From a candidate division Zixibacteria bacterium CG_4_9_14_3_um_filter_46_8 (GTDB taxonomy: Bacteria; Zixibacteria; MSB-5A5; UM-FILTER-46-8), in the NCBI GenBank assembly GCA_002791595.1, contig PFXJ01000092.1, positions 17,847 through 81,846 on the forward strand: DNA of 64,000 bases. The letters are read 5' to 3'. The notes beneath the pieces are model-generated. The model was not told the origin of the DNA. It worked only from the letters and a program-made list of their open reading frames with translations, and searched no databases. Made by a program: the position numbers and the translations under genes. This document shows, piece after piece, positions 43,281 through 64,000 of the stretch. Every line of letters begins with the position of its first letter. The stretch's first letter is position 1.

Positions 43281-44375
43281 TTATGATTGAAAATCGGGAT
43301 ACCCTATAAATATAGACTCGTTATCAGTCCGACTCCAATAGAATGGCTTGAATCGGATATGTCTGCCTCGCCCCACCTTGCTATGAATTGAGCTGAAGGG
43401 CACACCATCGCCAAATAAATATGGAGCGTGTGAGAGAACAATCTTATCCACCGCTTTCTCATCAAGAAACGCATTAAAAACCTTACTTCCGCCTTCAACC
43501 AGGATCGAAAAGATGCCTTCCTTGGCGGCTCTTTCAAGAAATGCCTTTATTGAAATCTTCTTGGCCCGAGTCTTAATTGACCATATCTCCACATTCTTCC
43601 CATAATTGGCTTTCGGCGCCCGCATGGGGATTGCCACAATCGTCCGGATATTGGAGGCAGTGGATAATATGTCCAAATCCGATGGCAACATCCTATCGTC
43701 ACAAAAGACAATACGGACCGGATCCCGCCCCTTCACCAATCTGACATTCAATCTTGGATTGTCAACAATTGCGGTCTTTGCCCCAATCAAGACAGCATCA
43801 CAACCAGCCCTCAAATGGTGAACATAACCCAGAAAATCGTTACTGGACAGATAGCGGCTATCGAATTTGCTGGAATAAATGAATCCATCCAAAGACATGG
43901 CTGCTTTCAGAATCACAAAAGGGATTCCGGTCGTTTTGTATTTGAAATACATCTCATTTAGTTGGGCCCCTTCTGCTTCCAAGAGGCCGCTACGGACTTT
44001 AATCCCGTTTCTTCTGAGCTCCGTTAATCCATCTCCCTTGACAAAAGGATTATTATCTTTGTTTGAGCAGATAACTTCCTTGACGCCGGCCGCTATTATG
44101 GCTTGAGTGCATGGAGGCGTCTTCCCGAAATGATTACAAGGTTCCAAATTCAGATACATACTTGAACCCCGGGTTTTGCCCTTCGCCGCTTTGATTGCCC
44201 GTGTTTCCGCATGCGCTGCTCCGTAACCCCGATGAAAACCAACTCCAGCGATTTCATTTCCATTGACTATTACTGCTCCAACCATCGGATTGGGTGACAC
44301 TTTTCCCCAGCCCTTAAGCGCCAAGGAGAAGGCCATCCGCATCATTTTCCGATCTTTATCTGAAAACCTTGCCAT
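43281..44375 (-). CDS. ribD: Bifunctional diaminohydroxyphosphoribosylaminopyrimidine deaminase / 5-amino-6-(5-phosphoribosylamino)uracil reductase
   Basis: CMP/dCMP-type deaminase zinc motif HAETRAI...EPCNHFGKTPPC, plus a C-terminal RibD reductase domain. Confidence 0.9.
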   Translation of the reverse strand: MARFSDKDRKMMRMAFSLALKGWGKVSPNPMVGAVIVNGNEIAGVGFHRGYGAAHAETRAIKAAKGKTRGSSMYLNLEPCNHFGKTPPCTQAIIAAGVKEVICSNKDNNPFVKGDGLTELRRNGIKVRSGLLEAEGAQLNEMYFKYKTTGIPFVILKAAMSLDGFIYSSKFDSRYLSSNDFLGYVHHLRAGCDAVLIGAKTAIVDNPRLNVRLVKGRDPVRIVFCDDRMLPSDLDILSTASNIRTIVAIPMRAPKANYGKNVEIWSIKTRAKKISIKAFLERAAKEGIFSILVEGGSKVFNAFLDEKAVDKIVLSHAPYLFGDGVPFSSIHSKVGRGRHIRFKPFYWSRTDNESIFIGYPDFQS

Positions 44376-44572
44376 AAAAAAATCCCCACTTCGGGGATAT
44401 TATTAAATAAAGGTTATTGTCAATAGAAACTCGCGCACCAATAAACCTTCAACCTTCTTCCATCCGGACTATGGCCGTCGGCGTCAGAATTTCACTGGCT
44501 CAGCTTGCGCTCGCGGGCTTTCACCGCCGGTTAAGGAATTTCACCTCACCCCGAAGGTTGATATAAATTTAT
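44376..44572 (-). promoter_or_regulatory. FMN riboswitch (RFN element) with a terminator-type expression platform, leader of the rib operon
   Basis: The minus-strand reading is CUUCGGGGUGAGGUGAAAUUCCUUAACCGGCGGUGAAAGCCCGCGAGCGCAAGCUGAGCCAGUGAAAUUCUGACGCCGACGGCCAUAGUCCGGAUGGAAGAAGGUUGAAGG. It matches the conserved RFN blocks GGUGAAAUUCC, ACCGGCGGU, AGCCCGCGAGC, GACGCCGACGG and AGUCCGGAUGGAAGAAGG. It is followed by the hairpin AUCCCCGAAGUGGGGAU and a U7 run directly upstream of the ribD ATG. Confidence 0.85.
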
Positions 44573-51859: not shown

Positions 51860-52306
51860 ATGATGAAAATAAATATTTACGTCGGCGGCAGGGATAGACG
51901 CGACTGGGCGGCAGAAGGTATTAGCCATTTTATCCAACTACTTCGGCCATTTGCCAACATATCGATTGATATATTTTCTCCAGAACAAGGCTCAGAGCCC
52001 AAAGATACAGAATCGCTCTTCAATAGGGTGCCGGCTGGCATCCCCATCGTGCTATTAGACCACTCCGGCGCAACCAAAAATTCCATCGAATTCGCCCGAT
52101 TAGTCAAAGACCTCTCCGGTCATTCCGGCAAATTGGCATTTTTCATCGGCGGGCCTGAAGGTTTCTCGAAAGATATCATCGACCAGGCGAAGAATGTGAT
52201 TTCCCTCTCCCCGATGACATTCAGCCATCGCCTGGCCTTGATAATTTTCCTCGAACAATTATATCGTGCCTTCGATATCTCTTCAAAGGGAAAATATCAG
52301 AGATAA
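51860..52306 (+). CDS. rlmH: 23S rRNA (pseudouridine1915-N3)-methyltransferase RlmH
   Basis: SPOUT fold, 148 aa, IVLLDHSG....FFIGGPEGFS. Confidence 0.8.
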   Translation: MMKINIYVGGRDRRDWAAEGISHFIQLLRPFANISIDIFSPEQGSEPKDTESLFNRVPAGIPIVLLDHSGATKNSIEFARLVKDLSGHSGKLAFFIGGPEGFSKDIIDQAKNVISLSPMTFSHRLALIIFLEQLYRAFDISSKGKYQR

Positions 52307-52669
52307 TTCAATGCCATAGGGGGAATGTTGAAAAAACAACGGTAGGTAGAGATCTTGACCTCGACCTGGACGCCAATGGCGTCCATAAATTATTCGAATG
52401 CAGGGGTCAAGACCCCTGCACCCCCCATTCCCAAACCAAGTTCCGAAGGATGGGTTAATCAAATTGCGTAAGGATAAAAGCTCAATCATTTACTGGAGGT
52501 TACCTACTATCGAAATTAGGGTAAATTGACCCATCAATTCAAAAATAGAAATGATGGGTCAAATCAATCGAGATTGGACATCCTTGATAGTTTCGCTACT
52601 CGCTCGAACGCGATCTTAAGCTAACCGGATTGACCCATCCTATGAACCGCGTATGTCATTCCCGTGAAA

Positions 52670-57283: not shown

Positions 57284-58927
57284 TCACCGACTTATAGTCA
57301 GCGAGTTAATTGCATCATTTAGCAACTTAAAGGCATATTTACTGTTATGCACTCCCTTACTGCCGTCATTGTTGACAAATTTCCAATTGAACGCCGCATA
57401 GGTACTATCCGTGCCGCTCGGCTCACTGGCCAGTAATCCCTCAAGAGTATCCAAGAGAACCGTCATAGAATCCTGAACGCCATTGACATTGAAATTGGTG
57501 GCTCCAATATGACAACCGGTGCAGTTATCGAGCGACGGCTGGAATTTATGCGGTGTATGCTGTGCCAAGCCATCATCATTTGACGAAACCTTAGAAATAT
57601 GACATGAGCCGCAGGCTTGGTTATTTAGCAAAGCCGTATGTGCTGAATTCGTATAAGTGCTGTCGTACTCATGACCGCCCACACCCGCAAACATCGCTCC
57701 GTGGACGTGAACCGGCTCAGAAAAATCATCCACTTCCAACTGCTTCTCATTATGACACCTTGAGCAGAGAATTCCCTGGGGTTCACGAAGTTCCCCGGGA
57801 TGCTGAGGGAAGTGCGGATCGTGACAAACCAAGCATGCGATTGATGTCCTCGGAGGATCAAAGGGGTAATGCTGTCCATGGCTGTCCGTGAATAGCCAGT
57901 CAAGGTATCCATTGGCAGTATGGCAGGCATCTCCGCAGGGATTGGCGCCGGCGGCATTGGCAGAAGTCGAATGCGCTGATGAATCCCATTGAGCGCTATA
58001 ATTATAATGTTTAGTCTCATGACAATCCGAACACTGAGCAGCGCTTATAGTCATCACCATGACCGAATCGAAGCTGTCTGTATGATCATAAACACCGCCA
58101 TTCCAATCCAACGAATCCCGATTAGACCATTTATAAATCGAATCGGCTTCAGTCGGATGGCAAGGTCCAGCATTCACACAGGATTGGAGACTATCTATGG
58201 TCTGGATGGTAACCTTATGCTCCGACCCCGGTCCATGACATTCTTCGCACTGCACACCTTCCAAATATGGGAAATGAAATTCATCATAGCCGCCATTAGC
58301 TAATCCCGCATCCCAGCCAGTGGTATGACAGGGCAAACAATTATCATTTTCCCCATTGCCCCCATCCAATAACGATTCAAACGCATTGGCATGCTTGCTT
58401 TCAAGCCACGAAGTATAAAGCGCCGGACGGCCGGCTATGTCCCCATGACACCCGCCGTCAGCACAGGTCTCCGCCCCAATATAATAACTGGTATCATTTC
58501 CAGTCGGCGGAGTATAAGTATCCACATTAATGCGAATCGAATCCAGGATTTCAAGCTGACCATCACTAATAGTCAGATAGAAACTATAAATCCCCCTCCG
58601 GTCCGGAGCATTCCAGTCGGTCACGGTGCTTTCCGGATAGAACAATCTTCCAGCGGCTACCACCCACGCAAATGTCATCTCATCGTTGTCAGGATCCGTA
58701 TAAGCTGCTGTCAACGTAATGGTTTCGCCGGCTCCAATCGAGTCCGCGCTGGATGTTATACTTCCAACTGGACTTTGATTTGGAGGGACCACCTTATCTT
58801 TGCCGCAACCCGTAATTATGAATCCTGTCCCCATAACAACAATAAGCAACAGCTTTAGCAGTTTGTTATCCAACAACGCACTCCTCCTATGTAAAAGCAT
58901 TGCACTTCTTTCAAAAGCATTTCTCAC
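57284..58927 (-). CDS. Multiheme c-type cytochrome, lipoprotein
   Basis: Lipoprotein signal ...FIITGCG. There are 7 canonical CxxCH motifs (CLPCH, CEECH, CSDCH, CLVCH, CSRCH, CGSCH, CTGCH) and two extended ones (CGDACH = Cx3CH, CADGGCH = Cx4CH). Confidence 0.85.
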   Translation of the reverse strand: MRNAFERSAMLLHRRSALLDNKLLKLLLIVVMGTGFIITGCGKDKVVPPNQSPVGSITSSADSIGAGETITLTAAYTDPDNDEMTFAWVVAAGRLFYPESTVTDWNAPDRRGIYSFYLTISDGQLEILDSIRINVDTYTPPTGNDTSYYIGAETCADGGCHGDIAGRPALYTSWLESKHANAFESLLDGGNGENDNCLPCHTTGWDAGLANGGYDEFHFPYLEGVQCEECHGPGSEHKVTIQTIDSLQSCVNAGPCHPTEADSIYKWSNRDSLDWNGGVYDHTDSFDSVMVMTISAAQCSDCHETKHYNYSAQWDSSAHSTSANAAGANPCGDACHTANGYLDWLFTDSHGQHYPFDPPRTSIACLVCHDPHFPQHPGELREPQGILCSRCHNEKQLEVDDFSEPVHVHGAMFAGVGGHEYDSTYTNSAHTALLNNQACGSCHISKVSSNDDGLAQHTPHKFQPSLDNCTGCHIGATNFNVNGVQDSMTVLLDTLEGLLASEPSGTDSTYAAFNWKFVNNDGSKGVHNSKYAFKLLNDAINSLTISR

Positions 58928-59296: not shown

Positions 59297-60085
59297 TCAA
59301 TTGATGCCTGTTTCCCCGTACTCCTCCCGAAGAATCTGTTGGAGTAGCTTGGCATTTTTCACCGCCTGGCCCTGATGGCAGTTATTGAAAAATAGATATA
59401 CGCTCTGGGTGGTTTCTTTGAGTTGGCGCAGGTATGCTAGCCAGCCATCCAGTTCCGACCCGCTGTAGTTATAATCATATCGTTCGCCACCCCCGCCCCA
59501 CCATTTGGCTTCATTGCGTCCATGAAATCGAACATACCCGATATCGATAGTCGCCTTTCCATCGGGCAGGAGCATTCCGTCAAGTTGCGGTTCATCCACA
59601 TTGCAGTACCCGATTTTTTCCCTGGATAGCATTTCGAAAAGCTTGGGCGTCACCCAGCTATTATGACGAAACTCCACAAACAGATTGTGCCCTTCAAAAT
59701 CATGCATGTGCCGCTTGAAATATTCCAGATTGGCACGAGTGAGCTTAAATGACCACGGGAATTGTGCCAGAAATCCCTTGAGTTTACCGGACTCGATCAA
59801 TGGCTTGACAGCTTCCAATAGTTTGGCGGCACCGCCAAAGCTCTCATCGCGCGAATGGGTGAAGTCCTGATGGGTTTTCACGATAAATTCGAAATCATCC
59901 TGCGTTTTTCGCGCCATGTTATAAAAGACGCTCGGGTGCGGAATCCCATAATATGTGGAATTTATCTCCACGCACCTGAAATGATCCTTGTAATAATCAA
60001 GCATCTTTCCTTTCTCGATGCCCGGGGGATAGAAAGGCCCGACCCAGTCGGCAAAGCTATATCCGGAGGTCCCTATCTTAAACAT
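59297..60085 (-). CDS. DUF72 (UPF0759) family protein
   Basis: MFKIGTSGYSFADWVGPFYPPGIEKGKMLDYY...EINSTYY is the characteristic DUF72 N-terminus. Confidence 0.75.
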   Translation of the reverse strand: MFKIGTSGYSFADWVGPFYPPGIEKGKMLDYYKDHFRCVEINSTYYGIPHPSVFYNMARKTQDDFEFIVKTHQDFTHSRDESFGGAAKLLEAVKPLIESGKLKGFLAQFPWSFKLTRANLEYFKRHMHDFEGHNLFVEFRHNSWVTPKLFEMLSREKIGYCNVDEPQLDGMLLPDGKATIDIGYVRFHGRNEAKWWGGGGERYDYNYSGSELDGWLAYLRQLKETTQSVYLFFNNCHQGQAVKNAKLLQQILREEYGETGIN

Positions 60086-60213
60086 TTTTATGCTTTTTGG
60101 AAGAATTCTGCTGAAATCGGACTGCGCCGCATTTCGGACAAATCCATTTGCGTTTCTTGTGGAAGGAGCGCTTTTGTTCGACCATCGCTATTTTGCATTT
60201 CTTGCACATCATC

Positions 60214-60810
60214 TCAATCGATAAATCCCAGCCAGTCGCCCAGAAGAAATTGTAGGCGGCCGATTAAAAGTGAGATTCGCGCCATCACCGTATAGCCGAA
60301 AGTGCTCCCGAAAAATATCATCAGGAAATAAATTCCGATCTTGGCGCCGACTCCAATTGCGCCTTTATGCGGTTGCGAAAAATAAAAGTAAATCAGCACC
60401 GATAAAACGGCCACGATGATTATGATGTTGGATAAACTGTTGATGGGCAACATAGTGGCTTTCATTTGCGCAATTATTTGGGCCTGCATCATCGCCGGTA
60501 TCGACACCCCGGCTCCCACACCGATGATAATCGATAGCGGTATTCGCGAATAAGGTGATAGCTTTTTGGAAAAGCGCAGAAACATCACCATGCCCAAAAT
60601 GCCGGGAATGATATAGGAAAGCTTCCCTTCGCTGAAAATCGGGATAAAAAGCTTGGGAATCAACGTGGTGGAAACAGTTACCGCCACGAAATAACCAACA
60701 CTCACTCCCAATAATATGTGCTCAGCCGCCTTGTAGAAGGGATTGTCCTTATACAAAAATGAATAAATCGCCAGCGTCAATATCGCGGCCACGGTTATCC
60801 CGTAATTCAT
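60214..60810 (-). CDS. Hypothetical polytopic membrane protein (operon gene 4 of 4)
   Basis: 198 aa, about six TM helices. Its start abuts the stop of the upstream gene. Confidence 0.5.
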   Translation of the reverse strand: MNYGITVAAILTLAIYSFLYKDNPFYKAAEHILLGVSVGYFVAVTVSTTLIPKLFIPIFSEGKLSYIIPGILGMVMFLRFSKKLSPYSRIPLSIIIGVGAGVSIPAMMQAQIIAQMKATMLPINSLSNIIIIVAVLSVLIYFYFSQPHKGAIGVGAKIGIYFLMIFFGSTFGYTVMARISLLIGRLQFLLGDWLGFID

Positions 60811-61670
60811 TATCGGCCTTTCCTCCTTCTTCCCGCTATCATCACTGTATTCCCAACCAATATCAAAATAATCACAAAGATATGCGCGCCGGATTGGGCA
60901 TCCATCCCTTTGACTGCCCGCCCCGGTTTTCCAATCAGCATTTCATATTCCGCCGCTCCCTTGAGCCCCGCCGCCAGACCGACCAATTGGCCGGACTGCA
61001 GAAAAGGATACATAGTTGTCGCCATTACTGCGGTGACCGCCGGGATAATCTTTACGCCATATCTTGCCTGGGCATAATTGACCCAATAAACCGGAATATC
61101 GCCATCGCCGACTGTTATTACCGCCGCAATATCCTTATAATTTTCTATACCTTCCATAACCGGAAAGCTCCGTATATCCTGGCCGGTATAATCCGAAGGG
61201 AACTCATGGTCAATTCGCTCCCCCAGCGCCAGAATCGCCGTCGTAAATTGGGGACGGAATCCCCAGAAGAGATAATCCTCTCCATACTTCTTATCATACT
61301 CACTCCCGATGCGGCGCAGATTGTCATCACCAACCGCCGCCCCTTCCGCCAGAAGCGCCATTCCGAATACTTTAAGATTTTTCCTGAAACAATGCCTTAG
61401 CAGGGCCTCCGCCAATGGCACCATCTCCGGCAAGGTCGAAGTCTCATGGTCAAATGAGAATATCACCGCCGAGTGTGGAGGGAGCCGGTCAAGAAATCCA
61501 TAGACCTGCCGGACTTCCGCAGTGACTCTCAACGGCAACCCGACTCGAAATATCAGCGGAGCAGCTACCACTATGGCCATCAAGATGAAAATAAAATGAC
61601 GACCCTGAATGCCCATTTTGTTCTTATCATTCTGACCCATCCTATTTTCCTCCCAGGTAGGTCCGCTCAA
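60810..61670 (-). CDS. Hypothetical membrane-anchored protein (operon gene 3 of 4)
   Basis: N-terminal TM segment, a ~220-aa soluble domain, and a C-terminal TM segment. Overlaps the upstream gene by 29 nt. Confidence 0.5.
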   Translation of the reverse strand: MSGPTWEENRMGQNDKNKMGIQGRHFIFILMAIVVAAPLIFRVGLPLRVTAEVRQVYGFLDRLPPHSAVIFSFDHETSTLPEMVPLAEALLRHCFRKNLKVFGMALLAEGAAVGDDNLRRIGSEYDKKYGEDYLFWGFRPQFTTAILALGERIDHEFPSDYTGQDIRSFPVMEGIENYKDIAAVITVGDGDIPVYWVNYAQARYGVKIIPAVTAVMATTMYPFLQSGQLVGLAAGLKGAAEYEMLIGKPGRAVKGMDAQSGAHIFVIILILVGNTVMIAGRRRKGR

Positions 61671-62265
61671 TTCCCAGTATCACCCGTAGCGAAGTGGCGA
61701 TAGTCCCCAGGGCAATCCCGATATATATTCCCCGACGGGCCGCCATCGAAGGCACATTGAGAATCCAATCTGCCGCTTTGGGGATATATGAAGATATTAT
61801 TTCTCCCACTGGAATTCTTCCCAACATCACTATAATCGCCGCCACCAGCAAGAATATCGCCTGGCTGTTGCGGGCCCGGAATCCTCGATAGGCCGCGGAA
61901 GCCACAAAAAATGACAGAAGCGAAAACATTGTGGCTTGCATCGGCGCCTGCACATTTTGAAATAACCAATGAAAGACGGTTCCCTCGCCTCTTCCAAAAA
62001 ACAGACCCGCCACCAACATAACCGTTATTCCCATAAGGATCAAAATGCTGAAAGGCCGCTCTTTGGCGTCTCTGCCGGAAGCGATGACAGCGTGATGCTT
62101 TATCAGCATCATCGCTCCCACCAGCAGTGAGAATGCGTATATGATCTGCACCCAATCCAGAATCGCTTCATACAGGGCGGTCGAAGCTTTATGCGGCACA
62201 AAAAATTGAACCAGCATAAAAGTCCCCAAGGCAAAGCAGATTAATAGGGGAAGTTTCCGATGCAT
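61642..62265 (-). CDS. Hypothetical polytopic membrane protein (operon gene 2 of 4)
   Basis: 207 aa, about six TM helices. Confidence 0.5.
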   Translation of the reverse strand: MHRKLPLLICFALGTFMLVQFFVPHKASTALYEAILDWVQIIYAFSLLVGAMMLIKHHAVIASGRDAKERPFSILILMGITVMLVAGLFFGRGEGTVFHWLFQNVQAPMQATMFSLLSFFVASAAYRGFRARNSQAIFLLVAAIIVMLGRIPVGEIISSYIPKAADWILNVPSMAARRGIYIGIALGTIATSLRVILGIERTYLGGK

Positions 62266-62271
62266 TGCGGG

Positions 62272-63444
62272 TTATCCTATCTCAAGAACAGAAAGCAATT
62301 CGCCGCCTCCAGCAGTCACCAAGATGGCGCCCAATATGAGCAAAATCCCTAATATCAGCTTAAGCATATCCTGCCCTTTTAGCGAGCTTAGAACCAGAGG
62401 ATCCTTGGCCAAATACCCTGATGCCGCAAAATACTCCTCCCCAATCAATACATAATCGCAAGCGACAATAAAGAACGAAAGCTGGATGGTGGAATCGGTT
62501 CCGGCGATTTGAATGGCGCCGATAGAATTGCCGGTCTCGGCCAAAATCAGGGACTCCGCCTCGAATGACCCCATAAAGAGATTGGTGGCAGGCCTTTGTC
62601 TTACCATAATTCCATCGACCGCCGCCGCATATCCGAATTGGCTATCGGTCAGGTAGAAGATATTCTCAGCCACATAACGGTCGGGATGTCCGGCTTTGAC
62701 ATACGCCTCATAAGCAACCTCTTGGGCAACGGCGGCAACCACGGGATCGTTATTGGGAAACAGTAGCGGCGTGTTATATTCGGCGGCTTTCGTCGCCACC
62801 GAGGAAAGCACATTCATCGAGGCAATCGTAGCCACCCTTTGCATACTTCCCCTGCCCGCAGAATATAGTATCGGTTTGCCAAGCTCTGTGGCGCGACCAA
62901 CCGCCTCATCAATCGCCTGCAAACCGGCTATCGGCCGGACGTAGAAGAATCCGCCCTTCCGCCCCCGATAAAAATAATATCCCAGAACCACGATGCAAAT
63001 CAGCACCCCAATTAAAACATTTGTTCGGCGGGAATTGAACAATTGCGGTGATGATTTCGCCGGTTCGGAGTCCACTATTATGGCCCCGCCACTTACATCG
63101 GTGAAGATCAGACGGTATGTGTAGCCTACCCCATTTTCTACATTATCGTCAACATAAACAGAATCATCGATTGGTATTTTCCCCAAATCGTCCCAACCGG
63201 AACCGGAAACAACCCTCCTTTGAATCTCTATCCGGACATATTCGGCTTGAGAAGCCCTGAGCGGCTCGGTATCCCAGACCACAGTGATACTATTACCGCC
63301 ATCATCGGGCGTGTCAAAAGCCCTTACGCCTCCGATAGCCGCAGTTGGAAGAATCAAGAGAAAGATGGCAAAACATAGAGCGATCATAATTTCATATCCC
63401 GATGCGATTTGATGAAGTTTATCGGCAACTGACTTGGTTGTCAA
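62272..63444 (-). CDS. Hypothetical membrane protein with an N-terminal fibronectin-III-like domain (operon gene 1 of 4)
   Basis: Signal-anchor, then an FN3-like segment (NSITVVWDTEPLRASQAEYVRIEIQRR...GYTYRLIFTD), a TM helix, a ~190-aa domain and a C-terminal TM helix. Confidence 0.5.
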   Translation of the reverse strand: MTTKSVADKLHQIASGYEIMIALCFAIFLLILPTAAIGGVRAFDTPDDGGNSITVVWDTEPLRASQAEYVRIEIQRRVVSGSGWDDLGKIPIDDSVYVDDNVENGVGYTYRLIFTDVSGGAIIVDSEPAKSSPQLFNSRRTNVLIGVLICIVVLGYYFYRGRKGGFFYVRPIAGLQAIDEAVGRATELGKPILYSAGRGSMQRVATIASMNVLSSVATKAAEYNTPLLFPNNDPVVAAVAQEVAYEAYVKAGHPDRYVAENIFYLTDSQFGYAAAVDGIMVRQRPATNLFMGSFEAESLILAETGNSIGAIQIAGTDSTIQLSFFIVACDYVLIGEEYFAASGYLAKDPLVLSSLKGQDMLKLILGILLILGAILVTAGGGELLSVLEIG

Positions 63445-64000
63445 GCCAATTCACAATATGCGATAGGCGAGCTTGGGCATGTGAACAATAAACATAGCCA
63501 AGCCTAACCCCAATCCCGGATTAAATCCGGGACGAAGGGGTTCGACTTGACCATGCCACTCGTCCGAGGTCATCAGGTTTAGAAATGATGATGTTGAAAA
63601 TAGGATAGAGTGGGTGTTGATGAAGATGCATGAGAAGTCGGAAAGGCAATTCCCTCACCCGCCTCCGCCTGCGGCGGAGCTACCCTCTTCCGATGAACGA
63701 GAGAGGAGAGTAGGTCAAACCTACTTGGGCTTGACGTTTCTCTTAATCCGACTTCGAGTGTCATACCAGCGAACGCTGGTATCCAGAAATGAATCTGGAT
63801 TCCGGATCAAGTCCGGAATGACACTGCAAGGAAAGGGGGCAGGCGGTGAGGGAGATTGCTCCCACCCCAAATCCCGTCCCACGAAAAATACTCCTTGACA
63901 ATTCCGGAAATCATTGTAAAATTAAATCAACGTCCATCTCATTGCGTGTATGGCAGACCTCCCGGTCTGCCTTGATGGGTAGGCAGACGAGGACGTCTGC

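Follow-up and report, generated by a model that had tools for sequence, protein, structure and literature searches.

The TRAP (DctPQM) and TTT (TctABC) transporters are multi-subunit systems that operate without an ABC ATPase, present an extracytoplasmic binding-type domain of alpha/beta architecture, and are encoded in catabolic operons with several paralogous sets per genome; DUF3394 is a domain of TAXI-TRAP fused permeases. In the Rnf/Nqr complexes (NqrB-E, RnfD/G/E/A), two 6-TM proteins of ~200 aa are joined by one subunit that combines a TM anchor with an outer domain and by one larger subunit. The GlmL/MutL family (PF13941) consists of ASKHA ATPases that assist glutamate mutase and ornithine degradation as accessory proteins, and members of the hydantoinase/GlmL branch are soluble enzymes or accessory factors; to our knowledge, energy coupling by an ASKHA (actin/Hsp70-fold) ATPase is not known for any membrane transporter. 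Finally, Pfam PF20539 (DUF6754) is a catalogue entry without function, structure or literature, and our literature searches on DUF6754, PF13941 and GlmL/ASKHA found nothing relevant.

Here we describe a four-gene module, p1 to p4, in a 64-kb stretch of Zixibacteria DNA (the window). The reading that we favour, tentatively and at somewhat less than an even chance, is that p1-p4 form a new four-subunit complex of the cytoplasmic membrane, most likely a solute importer; we infer its topology, transport function and substrate class alike from sequence. The module shares with TRAP and TTT all the traits listed above, but it has no sequence similarity to them; p3 consists of one lobe that a pair of TM helices anchors, whereas their binding protein is two-lobed and free or lipid-anchored, and two small 6-TM subunits, accompanied by a conserved cytoplasmic DUF6754 subunit, stand in place of a 12-TM permease. 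As far as literature could be found, neither the operon nor the three partner families of DUF6754 have been described.

Gene layout of the operon

The block lies at positions 60214-63387/63444 of the window, with all four genes co-directional on the minus strand where the original prediction had placed them, and the module is compact (~3.2 kb). Its features and immediate flanks are as follows:

62272..63387, minus strand: p1, 371 aa from ATG 63387 (390 aa if from TTG 63444)
61642..62265, minus strand: p2, 207 aa, polytopic with ~6 TM helices, no known family
60810..61640, minus strand: p3, probably 276 aa from ATG 61640; the ORF reaches back to TTG 61670
60214..60810, minus strand: p4, 198 aa, polytopic with ~6 TM helices, no known family
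60078..60212, minus strand: zinc-ribbon ORF, 44 aa, two CxxC pairs, unannotated
63388..64000, minus strand: highly structured non-coding leader

The start of p1 is most likely ATG 63387 (MIALCF...) rather than TTG 63444, and was revised because an independent gene call at locus L103 (same genome, 99.97% identical) gives a protein of 371 aa. Likewise, p3 most likely begins at ATG 61640, which is preceded by GGGAGGA and yields a length in agreement with that of p3 homologues. With this start, p2 and p3 no longer overlap by 29 nt, as had been reported, but lie 1 nt apart, while the tight packing itself stands: p1 and p2 are separated by 6 nt, and p3 and p4 overlap within TAATG (-1 nt). These junctions bear out the view of one tight operon of membrane proteins, and the four genes constitute one translationally coupled operon. 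The SD-like sites found at the p1-p4 junctions, taken with the tight coupling, argue for a single complex and for an importer.

Protein families and known membrane complexes

All four proteins are predicted to be membrane-localised, which also counts in favour of an importer. It had been claimed that the operon carries no ATPase, transporter or enzyme signature; this holds in Pfam, NCBIfam and PADLOC with p1 as the one exception, a catalogued DUF that had been overlooked. PF20539 matches p1 with 344.2 bits (E=5e-103, gathering score 27 bits) over residues 133-379 in the 390-aa numbering and model positions 3-249 of 257, that is, over the full model, while p1 orthologues score 375-404 bits and relatives bear the NCBI name "DUF6754 domain-containing protein", so that p1 is, by profile match, clearly assigned to DUF6754. 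The protein is predicted to run from an N-terminal signal/anchor helix through an FN3 ectodomain (~aa 20-115) and a TM helix to the cytoplasmic DUF6754 of ~200 aa, which is highly conserved and contains invariant Asp, Glu and His residues, and to end in a C-terminal TM helix. The p1 family comprises at least 7,878 members; its long forms add only FN3 repeats, so the stalk varies in length, and the ectodomain is missing in Marinimicrobia and Bacillota. A single IMG record gives a p1 the product name "di/tricarboxylate transporter", which is weak evidence for the importer reading; a DASS/CitT-like identity was rejected after comparison with E. coli CitT by hhalign (DUF6754 alignment, probability 0.4%) and by BLASTP (P0415, E=3.6).

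No family in Pfam, NCBIfam, PADLOC or PDB sequences was matched by p2, p3 or p4. Hydropathy analysis gives approximately the six TM helices originally proposed for p2 and for p4, and the TM helices at both ends of p3 are indeed present. In p2 the motif QATMFSLLAFFVASAxYRxFRxRN and a C-terminal GxERxYLGG are conserved, and in p4 LYKDNPFYKxAEH and GIYFLMIxFGAxFGxTVMARISLLIGR. Between its two helices p3 holds a Rossmann-like alpha/beta domain of ~210 aa, probably extracytoplasmic, and it ends in an RRRKGR tail. Both p3 and p4 have invariant Asp, Glu and His residues, and no invariant Cys or cofactor motif is conserved in p2, p3 or p4. Profile comparisons of p1 with p3 and of p2 with p4, made for internal duplication, were negative, and the four proteins thus represent four distinct families. 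The p4 family alone amounts to 2,219 representative clusters at 50% identity (E<=1e-3), and its long inserts contain no informative domain. The lineage-variable insertions (FN3 repeats in p1, loop inserts in p2 and p4) all fall on the predicted outer face, an observation that we count in favour of the importer reading.

It is highly improbable that p1-p4 are divergent parts of known transporters (ABC-2, ECF, TRAP, TTT) or adjacent by accident without joint function. Proteins of ~200 aa with 6 TM helices superficially resemble ABC-2 or ECF-S components, and 13 of 81 p2 members give sub-threshold matches to DUF3394 (best E 0.07), but a member-wise Pfam scan of 81 p2 and 61 p4 sequences returned only scattered sub-threshold matches to dozens of TM families that have nothing to do with one another, as is typical of hydrophobic noise, and no ABC ATPase, EcfT, DctM/Q/P or TctA/B/C is found in the module or recurs nearby. 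The ABC2_membrane, EcfT and S-component models gave no match at E<=1 for p2 or p4 and were not among the commonest matches of the same 81 and 61 members; an ABC_tran gene is absent from the operon and accounts for only 2 of the 116 ORFs that flank the module at the various loci. An ABC-2 or ECF-type transporter was rejected, since neither the permease models nor a cognate ABC ATPase were found, and a TRAP or TTT identity was set aside with no DctM, DctQ, TctA or TctB match in Pfam or NCBIfam and with p3 as a single lobe. The original prediction had named matches to well-characterised families, for example ABC-2 or ECF components, as a refutation, and the profile searches found none. Three of these results weigh against our own reading as well: p1-p4 resemble no transporter family of Pfam, NCBIfam or the PDB sequences, either by sequence or by profile, the comparisons with CitT were negative, and the single lobe of p3 differs from classical two-lobe binding proteins.

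A further reading is that the module translocates ions or acts as an enzyme complex in the membrane, either as an analogue of Rnf/Nqr, Mrp or a decarboxylase pump or as an intramembrane hydrolase/transferase; the conserved acidic residues of DUF6754 and p4 would be putative catalytic or ion-binding sites. In size and topology, p2 and p4 (~200 aa, 6 TM) and p3 (TM plus outer domain) may recall NqrD/E and NqrC, the invariant Asp, Glu and His residues of DUF6754, p3 and p4 would suit such a role, and very weak MrpG-like matches recur for p2. We nevertheless regard this as quite improbable: no Rnf-Nqr, Mrp or decarboxylase match in Pfam or NCBIfam rises above noise, p2-p4 are devoid of conserved Cys and cofactor motifs, no redox partner recurs in the neighbourhood, and a multihaem cytochrome that adjoins the operon here is not conserved with the module. 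An Rnf/Na+-NQR identity was accordingly rejected (no Rnf-Nqr or FMN_bind match, no FMN-binding motif, a different gene order), as was a MotA/ExbB/TolQ stator, MotA_ExbB being matched by 1 of 61 p4 members (E=0.24) with no ExbD/MotB-like partner.

Distribution and gene neighbourhoods

Among 80 p1 genes with enough downstream DNA, 76 are followed by p2, p3 and p4 in this order, and all 7 informative GTDB loci, which represent at least 5 lineages, keep the same order. Such conservation across phyla is far beyond chance and excludes accidental adjacency, and it answers the earlier doubt whether the block is conserved as a unit elsewhere. Strict co-occurrence and order, together with translational coupling, are the evidence from which co-assembly of p1-p4 is suggested. 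Carriers are found in Zixibacteria, Ignavibacteria, Marinimicrobia, Riflebacteria, Bacillota and the unclassified "bacterium ADurb.Bin157". The proposal of a novel envelope or transport complex thus stays plausible; its supposed restriction to this lineage does not hold and the suggested link with FCB genomes and T9SS is not borne out, as Riflebacteria, "bacterium ADurb.Bin157" and monoderm Bacillota MAGs carry the module too. Thousands of genomes of these and other groups encode it, often in several copies, although p2, p3 and p4 belong to no named family and p1 is classed only as a DUF; if the module is a new transporter class, metabolic reconstructions of abundant sediment and ocean lineages lack a major uptake route.

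The module occurs in 1-4 tandem copies, an amplification that had gone unremarked, and sets of 2-4 paralogous modules are kept in tandem across contigs, which fits a diversification of specificity. Apart from the three families A, B and c treated below, recurrent neighbours are lacking: no family is present at more than 6 of 88 loci or in more than 4 of 116 de-duplicated flanking ORFs, and the module is a self-contained unit.

The neighbourhoods most telling for an importer come from Bacillota-type genomes, where the module shares small operons with regulators and with peptidases or amidases. In arrangements such as IclR-p1-p2-p3-p4-DUF1028-amidase, p1-p4 are the sole membrane proteins, and elsewhere the module is found next to M20, M24/M16 or amidohydrolase genes and PucR. 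In Marinimicrobia, aldehyde dehydrogenase and aminotransferase genes follow downstream. We count both settings as a transport-type context. Against this, the association with peptidases and amidases comprises ~6 contexts from one clade and is absent from Zixibacteria-type loci, whose neighbours are unrelated housekeeping genes, and some loci lie beside polysaccharide genes (Wzz, Wzi, Poly_export, epimerase).

On the importer reading, it is tempting to hypothesize that p2 and p4, each with ~6 TM helices and mutually unrelated, would form the membrane core and provide the pathway, while p3, which a TM helix holds in the membrane at either end, would set its Rossmann-like ligand-binding domain on the outer face and capture the substrate. 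The extremely conserved DUF6754 of p1, held between two TM helices at the cytoplasmic, membrane-proximal side, might gate or couple transport, which is a guess, and in the Zixibacteria-type lineage p1 would also bear an outward FN3 stalk. The imported solute would most likely be small and nitrogenous, for example a peptide, an amide or an amino-acid derivative. Since the module is compact, self-contained and found in simple regulated Bacillota-type operons, it is realistic to express it in another host, to solve its structure and to screen for substrates.

The polysaccharide genes raise the question of whether the module might instead be an envelope-biogenesis device for lipid-linked glycans or exopolysaccharide, namely a flippase, polymerase or co-polymerase-like complex. 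A Wzz/GNVR gene stands right after the cluster in L007 and L008; in L019 p4 is followed by a Wzi-like gene, and Wzi accounts for 2 of the 116 flanking ORFs; on one contig an epimerase, Poly_export and Bac_transf are directly downstream, an NAD-dependent epimerase adjoins the module in L089 and L096, and Marinimicrobia have CdsA and an RlpA-like gene upstream. The variable length of the p1 stalk could be read in the same sense. However, such neighbours are sporadic, none exceeding 2-4 of the 116 de-duplicated flanking ORFs, monoderm Bacillota carry the module as well as diderms, p1 of Marinimicrobia and Bacillota lacks the ectodomain, and the module does not resemble the Wzx, Wzy, Wzm, GtrA, MOP or ABC-2 families, so that we judge this role to be rather unlikely.

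The GlmL-like ATPase trio and the flanks of the operon

At 19 of 101 loci the module is accompanied by a GlmL-like ASKHA ATPase (A) and two further uncharacterised proteins (B and the small c), a link that is absent from the original prediction. The trio occurs as ABc-1234 and as 1234-cAB, and the existence of two different arrangements argues that its connection with the module is functional rather than accidental; a single trio can adjoin 2-3 modules. A matches PF13941 (E ~1e-120) with intact ASKHA nucleotide-binding motifs and a mean column identity of 69%, and belongs to this family on the strength of its profile match. It reaches 219.8 bits against the GlmL equivalog model NF040745, with a cut-off of 475, is ~140 aa longer than GlmL, and is paired with B, c and the membrane module instead of B12-binding, GlmE or B12-dependent mutase genes, and it was therefore not accepted as a GlmL equivalog. 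The B family, too, is very large and uncharacterised, and its Riflebacteria-type members give weak RnfC_N and Biotin_lipoyl barrel-sandwich matches, which are among the points that could speak for the ion-translocating reading. Searches of PDB sequences and profiles gave no match for p1-p4, A or B, whether the alignments used were small or large, and the PADLOC anti-phage defence models matched none of p1-p4, A, B and c.

These findings open the reading that the module serves as the membrane base of a machine driven by ATP, which would perform export, remodel the envelope or anchor filaments instead of importing a solute. A would dock with B and c on the cytoplasmic DUF6754, whose high conservation would suit docking, and drive conformational work across the membrane; in the present genome the ATPase would be encoded elsewhere. 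Recurrence of the trio in two arrangements, its sharing by several modules, the intact nucleotide-binding motifs of A and the size of the B family all speak for it. We consider it unlikely all the same: none of the three genes is present in the 64-kb window or in the 1.8 kb past its end, most loci with 9-10 kb flanks are without them, A is closest to the hydantoinase/GlmL branch, and we know of no ASKHA ATPase that powers such a membrane machine. A broader and similarly doubtful conjecture, drawn from sequence, is that the DUF6754 module could be the membrane part, made up of four novel protein families, of an unrecognised class of transport or translocation machine whose full form would be energised or regulated by a GlmL-type ASKHA ATPase with two novel proteins. 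If the module does work with this ATPase, it would represent a new type of membrane energy coupling, and an ASKHA-energised machine, if true, would be widespread in uncultivated anaerobic phyla. For the importer that we favour, genomes with A, B and c may have the trio docked on DUF6754 or engaged in processing the imported substrate.

Upstream of p1, the hairpin-dense DNA noted originally was confirmed: the 613 bp at 63388-64000 fold at z = -4.5 and -5.5, no shuffle equalled them, and they are the most structured among 15 regions tested. They contain twin GCAGAC-N6-GTCTGC palindromes and match no Rfam family, and comparisons with repeats, Rfam and other regions led us to reject a dispersed repeat or a known RNA. 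From the context of L103, this leader belongs to a divergent intergenic region of ~680 bp between p1 and a T9SS-cargo gene that sits just past the window edge. At the other end, the 44-aa zinc-ribbon ORF, which had been missed, starts 1 nt past the p4 stop and ends overlapping the start of a DUF72 gene. A zinc-ribbon gene with both CxxC pairs directly follows p4 in L001, L016, L017, L039 and L048, and it is a lineage-specific downstream neighbour that is possibly co-transcribed with the operon.

Organisation and anatomy of the operon

The four minus-strand genes p1 to p4, numbered in gene order, very probably encode the four subunits of a conserved membrane complex, whose component families are novel. 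The four consecutive ORFs on which the original prediction was based are present in the ORF listing, and the starts of p1 and p3 have been revised.

62272-63444, minus strand: p1 ORF
61642-62265, minus strand: p2 ORF
60810-61670, minus strand: p3 ORF
60214-60810, minus strand: p4 ORF

The p1 start is most likely ATG 63387, giving 371 aa (MIALCFAIFLLILPTAAIGG...) with a signal-peptide-like N-terminus, and that of p3 most likely ATG 61640 (276 aa), since homologue lengths agree; both revisions are backed by the independent gene call in L103, another assembly of the same organism (99.97% identity over 7 kb). GGGAGGA precedes the p3 ATG, and p4 has a GGAGG motif upstream of it. With the revised starts, p1 and p2 are 6 nt apart, p2 and p3 1 nt apart, and p3 and p4 overlap at TAATG; the tight packing described at the outset stands, the p2/p3 overlap gives way to the 1-nt gap, and p1-p4 look like one translationally coupled transcription unit.

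Read from hydropathy and charge distribution, p1 consists of a signal/anchor, an ectodomain of ~100 aa, a TM helix followed by RGRKGG, a cytoplasmic domain of ~200 aa and a last TM helix; residues 133-379 match Pfam DUF6754 (E=5e-103). The most conserved stretch of the operon lies in p1 (FEAESLILAETGNSIGAIQIAGT..Q..FF..ACDY.LIGEE.FAAS.YL) and is invariant across phyla; it coincides with the part that resisted modelling (pLDDT 30-43), is moderately hydrophobic, and may sit within the membrane or inside an interface between subunits. In the source organism, a candidate division Zixibacteria MAG, both p2 (PJA26941.1) and p4 (PJA26939.1) carry the name 'hypothetical protein' and are polytopic, with ~6 TM helices each and strong family-specific motifs.

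In keeping with the uncharacterised proteins first described, profile searches assigned p1 to DUF6754 only and found no match for p2, p3 or p4 in Pfam, NCBIfam or PADLOC. When 81 p2 and 61 p4 orthologues were scanned singly, only scattered sub-threshold matches to dozens of unrelated TM families appeared, and profile searches against all PDB sequences returned nothing for any subunit. No homology was detectable between p1 and p3 or between p2 and p4, and the subunits therefore represent four distinct families. The domain of p3 is Rossmann-like. An ion-translocating or enzymatic complex is quite unlikely. One IMG record names P0415, a Bacillota-type p1 protein of 260 aa, 'di/tricarboxylate transporter'; no similarity to E. 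coli CitT could be reproduced.

Spread and amplification of the module

The p1-p2-p3-p4 module is uncharacterised, widespread and modular, and is explained by no known system. A GTDB scan with p1 gave loci from Zixibacteria, Ignavibacteria, four Marinimicrobia, Riflebacteria and 'bacterium ADurb.Bin157', with the four genes adjacent and in the same order in 7/7 loci having enough DNA. A metagenome scan with the DUF6754 alignment yielded more than 554 relatives, 80 loci being retained. Taking all loci together, 80 p1 genes have 2.7 kb or more of DNA downstream, and in 76 of them p2, p3 and p4 come next in that order, so that the block is indeed conserved as a unit elsewhere. The exceptions are as follows.

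L034:6322-7281: orphan p1, no p2-p4 within 9 kb
L041:159-893 and L079:7852-8613: extra p1 directly before a complete module
L061: p2 match split in two, the module therefore being in fact complete

At L010:10559-14107 the order is kept and unrelated ORFs are inserted between p2 and p3 and between p3 and p4. It is highly improbable that the adjacency is accidental or that the module is a divergent known transporter.

The families are large (at least 7,878 matches for p1, 676 for p3, and 2,219 clusters at 50% identity for p4) and extend to monoderm Bacillota MAGs, for which reasons the proposed FCB-specific or T9SS-linked system finds no support. The tight membrane-protein operon remains plausible as a new envelope or transport complex; its multi-phylum occurrence shows that it is not restricted to one lineage.

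The whole module is often repeated head-to-tail, with two copies in 6 loci and three in 5, and L096 (GCA_028280325.1, 7745-20347) holds four within 20 kb, one on the plus strand and three in tandem on the minus strand. An identical three-module arrangement occurs in four separate contigs (L061, L067, L070, L083); such persistence of the duplication from contig to contig suggests that the paralogues are specialised. The L096 copies adjoin a gene of DUF483, an archaeal family.

Neighbouring genes and possible functions

Zixibacteria-type and other FCB loci show no further recurrent neighbour family (maximum 6/88 loci, 4/116 de-duplicated flanking ORFs), and the module is self-contained there. 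Contexts in the short-p1 clade (Bacillota-type, p1 without ectodomain) are more suggestive.

Gene contexts in the short-p1 clade
IclR-module-DUF1028-amidase
module-M20 peptidase-PucR-racemase-Opp
DUF1028 / module, with Opp and two amidohydrolases near
M20/M28 peptidase and epimerase adjoining the module
module-nitroreductase-M24-M16

We tentatively favour a solute importer as working hypothesis for the function, on several grounds. In small catabolic operons that are regulated and encode amide-bond hydrolases, the sole membrane proteins are those of the module. Its amplification has produced sets of paralogues, a frequent feature of transporter operons. The signature of p3 is that of a ligand-binding domain facing outwards. 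Finally, the predicted outer face carries all of the lineage-specific variation, and the membrane core and the cytoplasmic domain hardly vary. Polysaccharide genes (Wzz, Wzi, Poly_export, Bac_transf, epimerase) adjoin the module sporadically, and an envelope-glycan device seems unlikely.

A machine driven by an ASKHA ATPase is likewise doubtful. Three genes, A, B and c, flank the module in 19/101 loci (for example L004:4662-7924 and L008:11244-14525; also L038, L045, L047 and L072).

A: ~600-605 aa, GlmL/MutL-family ASKHA protein (PF13941, E about 1e-120)
B: 375 aa, no family
c: ~100 aa, no family

The arrangement is A-B-c-1234 in Marinimicrobia and 1234-c-A-B, then Wzz, in Riflebacteria-type loci. 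The phosphate-1, phosphate-2 and adenosine motifs of A are all intact; its score is well under the GlmL equivalog cut-off. For B, which has no Pfam family, there are at least 8,000 homologues, all unannotated, and the trio is conserved and itself an uncharacterised system. Our literature search found no mention of DUF6754 or PF13941. None of A, B and c lies within the 64-kb window or in the 1.8 kb past its end; the latter stretch carries a divergent Por_Secre_tail gene instead.

Downstream of p4 lies a small ORF.

60078-60212, minus strand: unannotated zinc-ribbon ORF, 44 aa (MMCKKCKIAMVEQKRSFHKKRKWICPKCGAVRFQQNSSKKHKNV)

It fills the p4-DUF72 spacer, beginning 1 nt past the p4 stop and overlapping the DUF72 start at its end. 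The ORF is conserved in five related loci (L001, L016, L017, L039 and L048), where it directly follows p4 and has both CxxC pairs, and was found once away from p4 (L010, 3.3 kb distant). Downstream of DUF72, a 547-aa protein with many CxxCH motifs (57284-58927, minus strand), whose L103 counterpart is annotated Cytochrome_C554 / Paired_CXXCH, is not conserved alongside the module in other lineages.

Upstream region and other non-coding elements

The hairpin-dense DNA reported upstream of the operon proved unusually structured.

63388-64000, minus strand: leader and divergent intergenic region upstream of p1, 613 nt

Its fold z values are -4.5 and -5.5, also put at about -5 to -6, no shuffle folded as well, and among 15 regions tested it shows the strongest structure. 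It has no Rfam family match and no DNA-level conservation in a Zixibacterium with a 70%-identical operon; a dispersed repeat was ruled out. The window edge carries two GCAGAC-N6-GTCTGC palindromes (63953-63970 and 63983-64000) with a spacing of 30 nt. Elsewhere, a second strongly structured non-coding stretch occupies 52300-52600 (z -4.5 by shuffle control; no Rfam match at gathering threshold), and an FMN riboswitch (RF00050, 105 bits; 44448-44562, minus strand) lies upstream of the minus-strand ORF 43281-44375.
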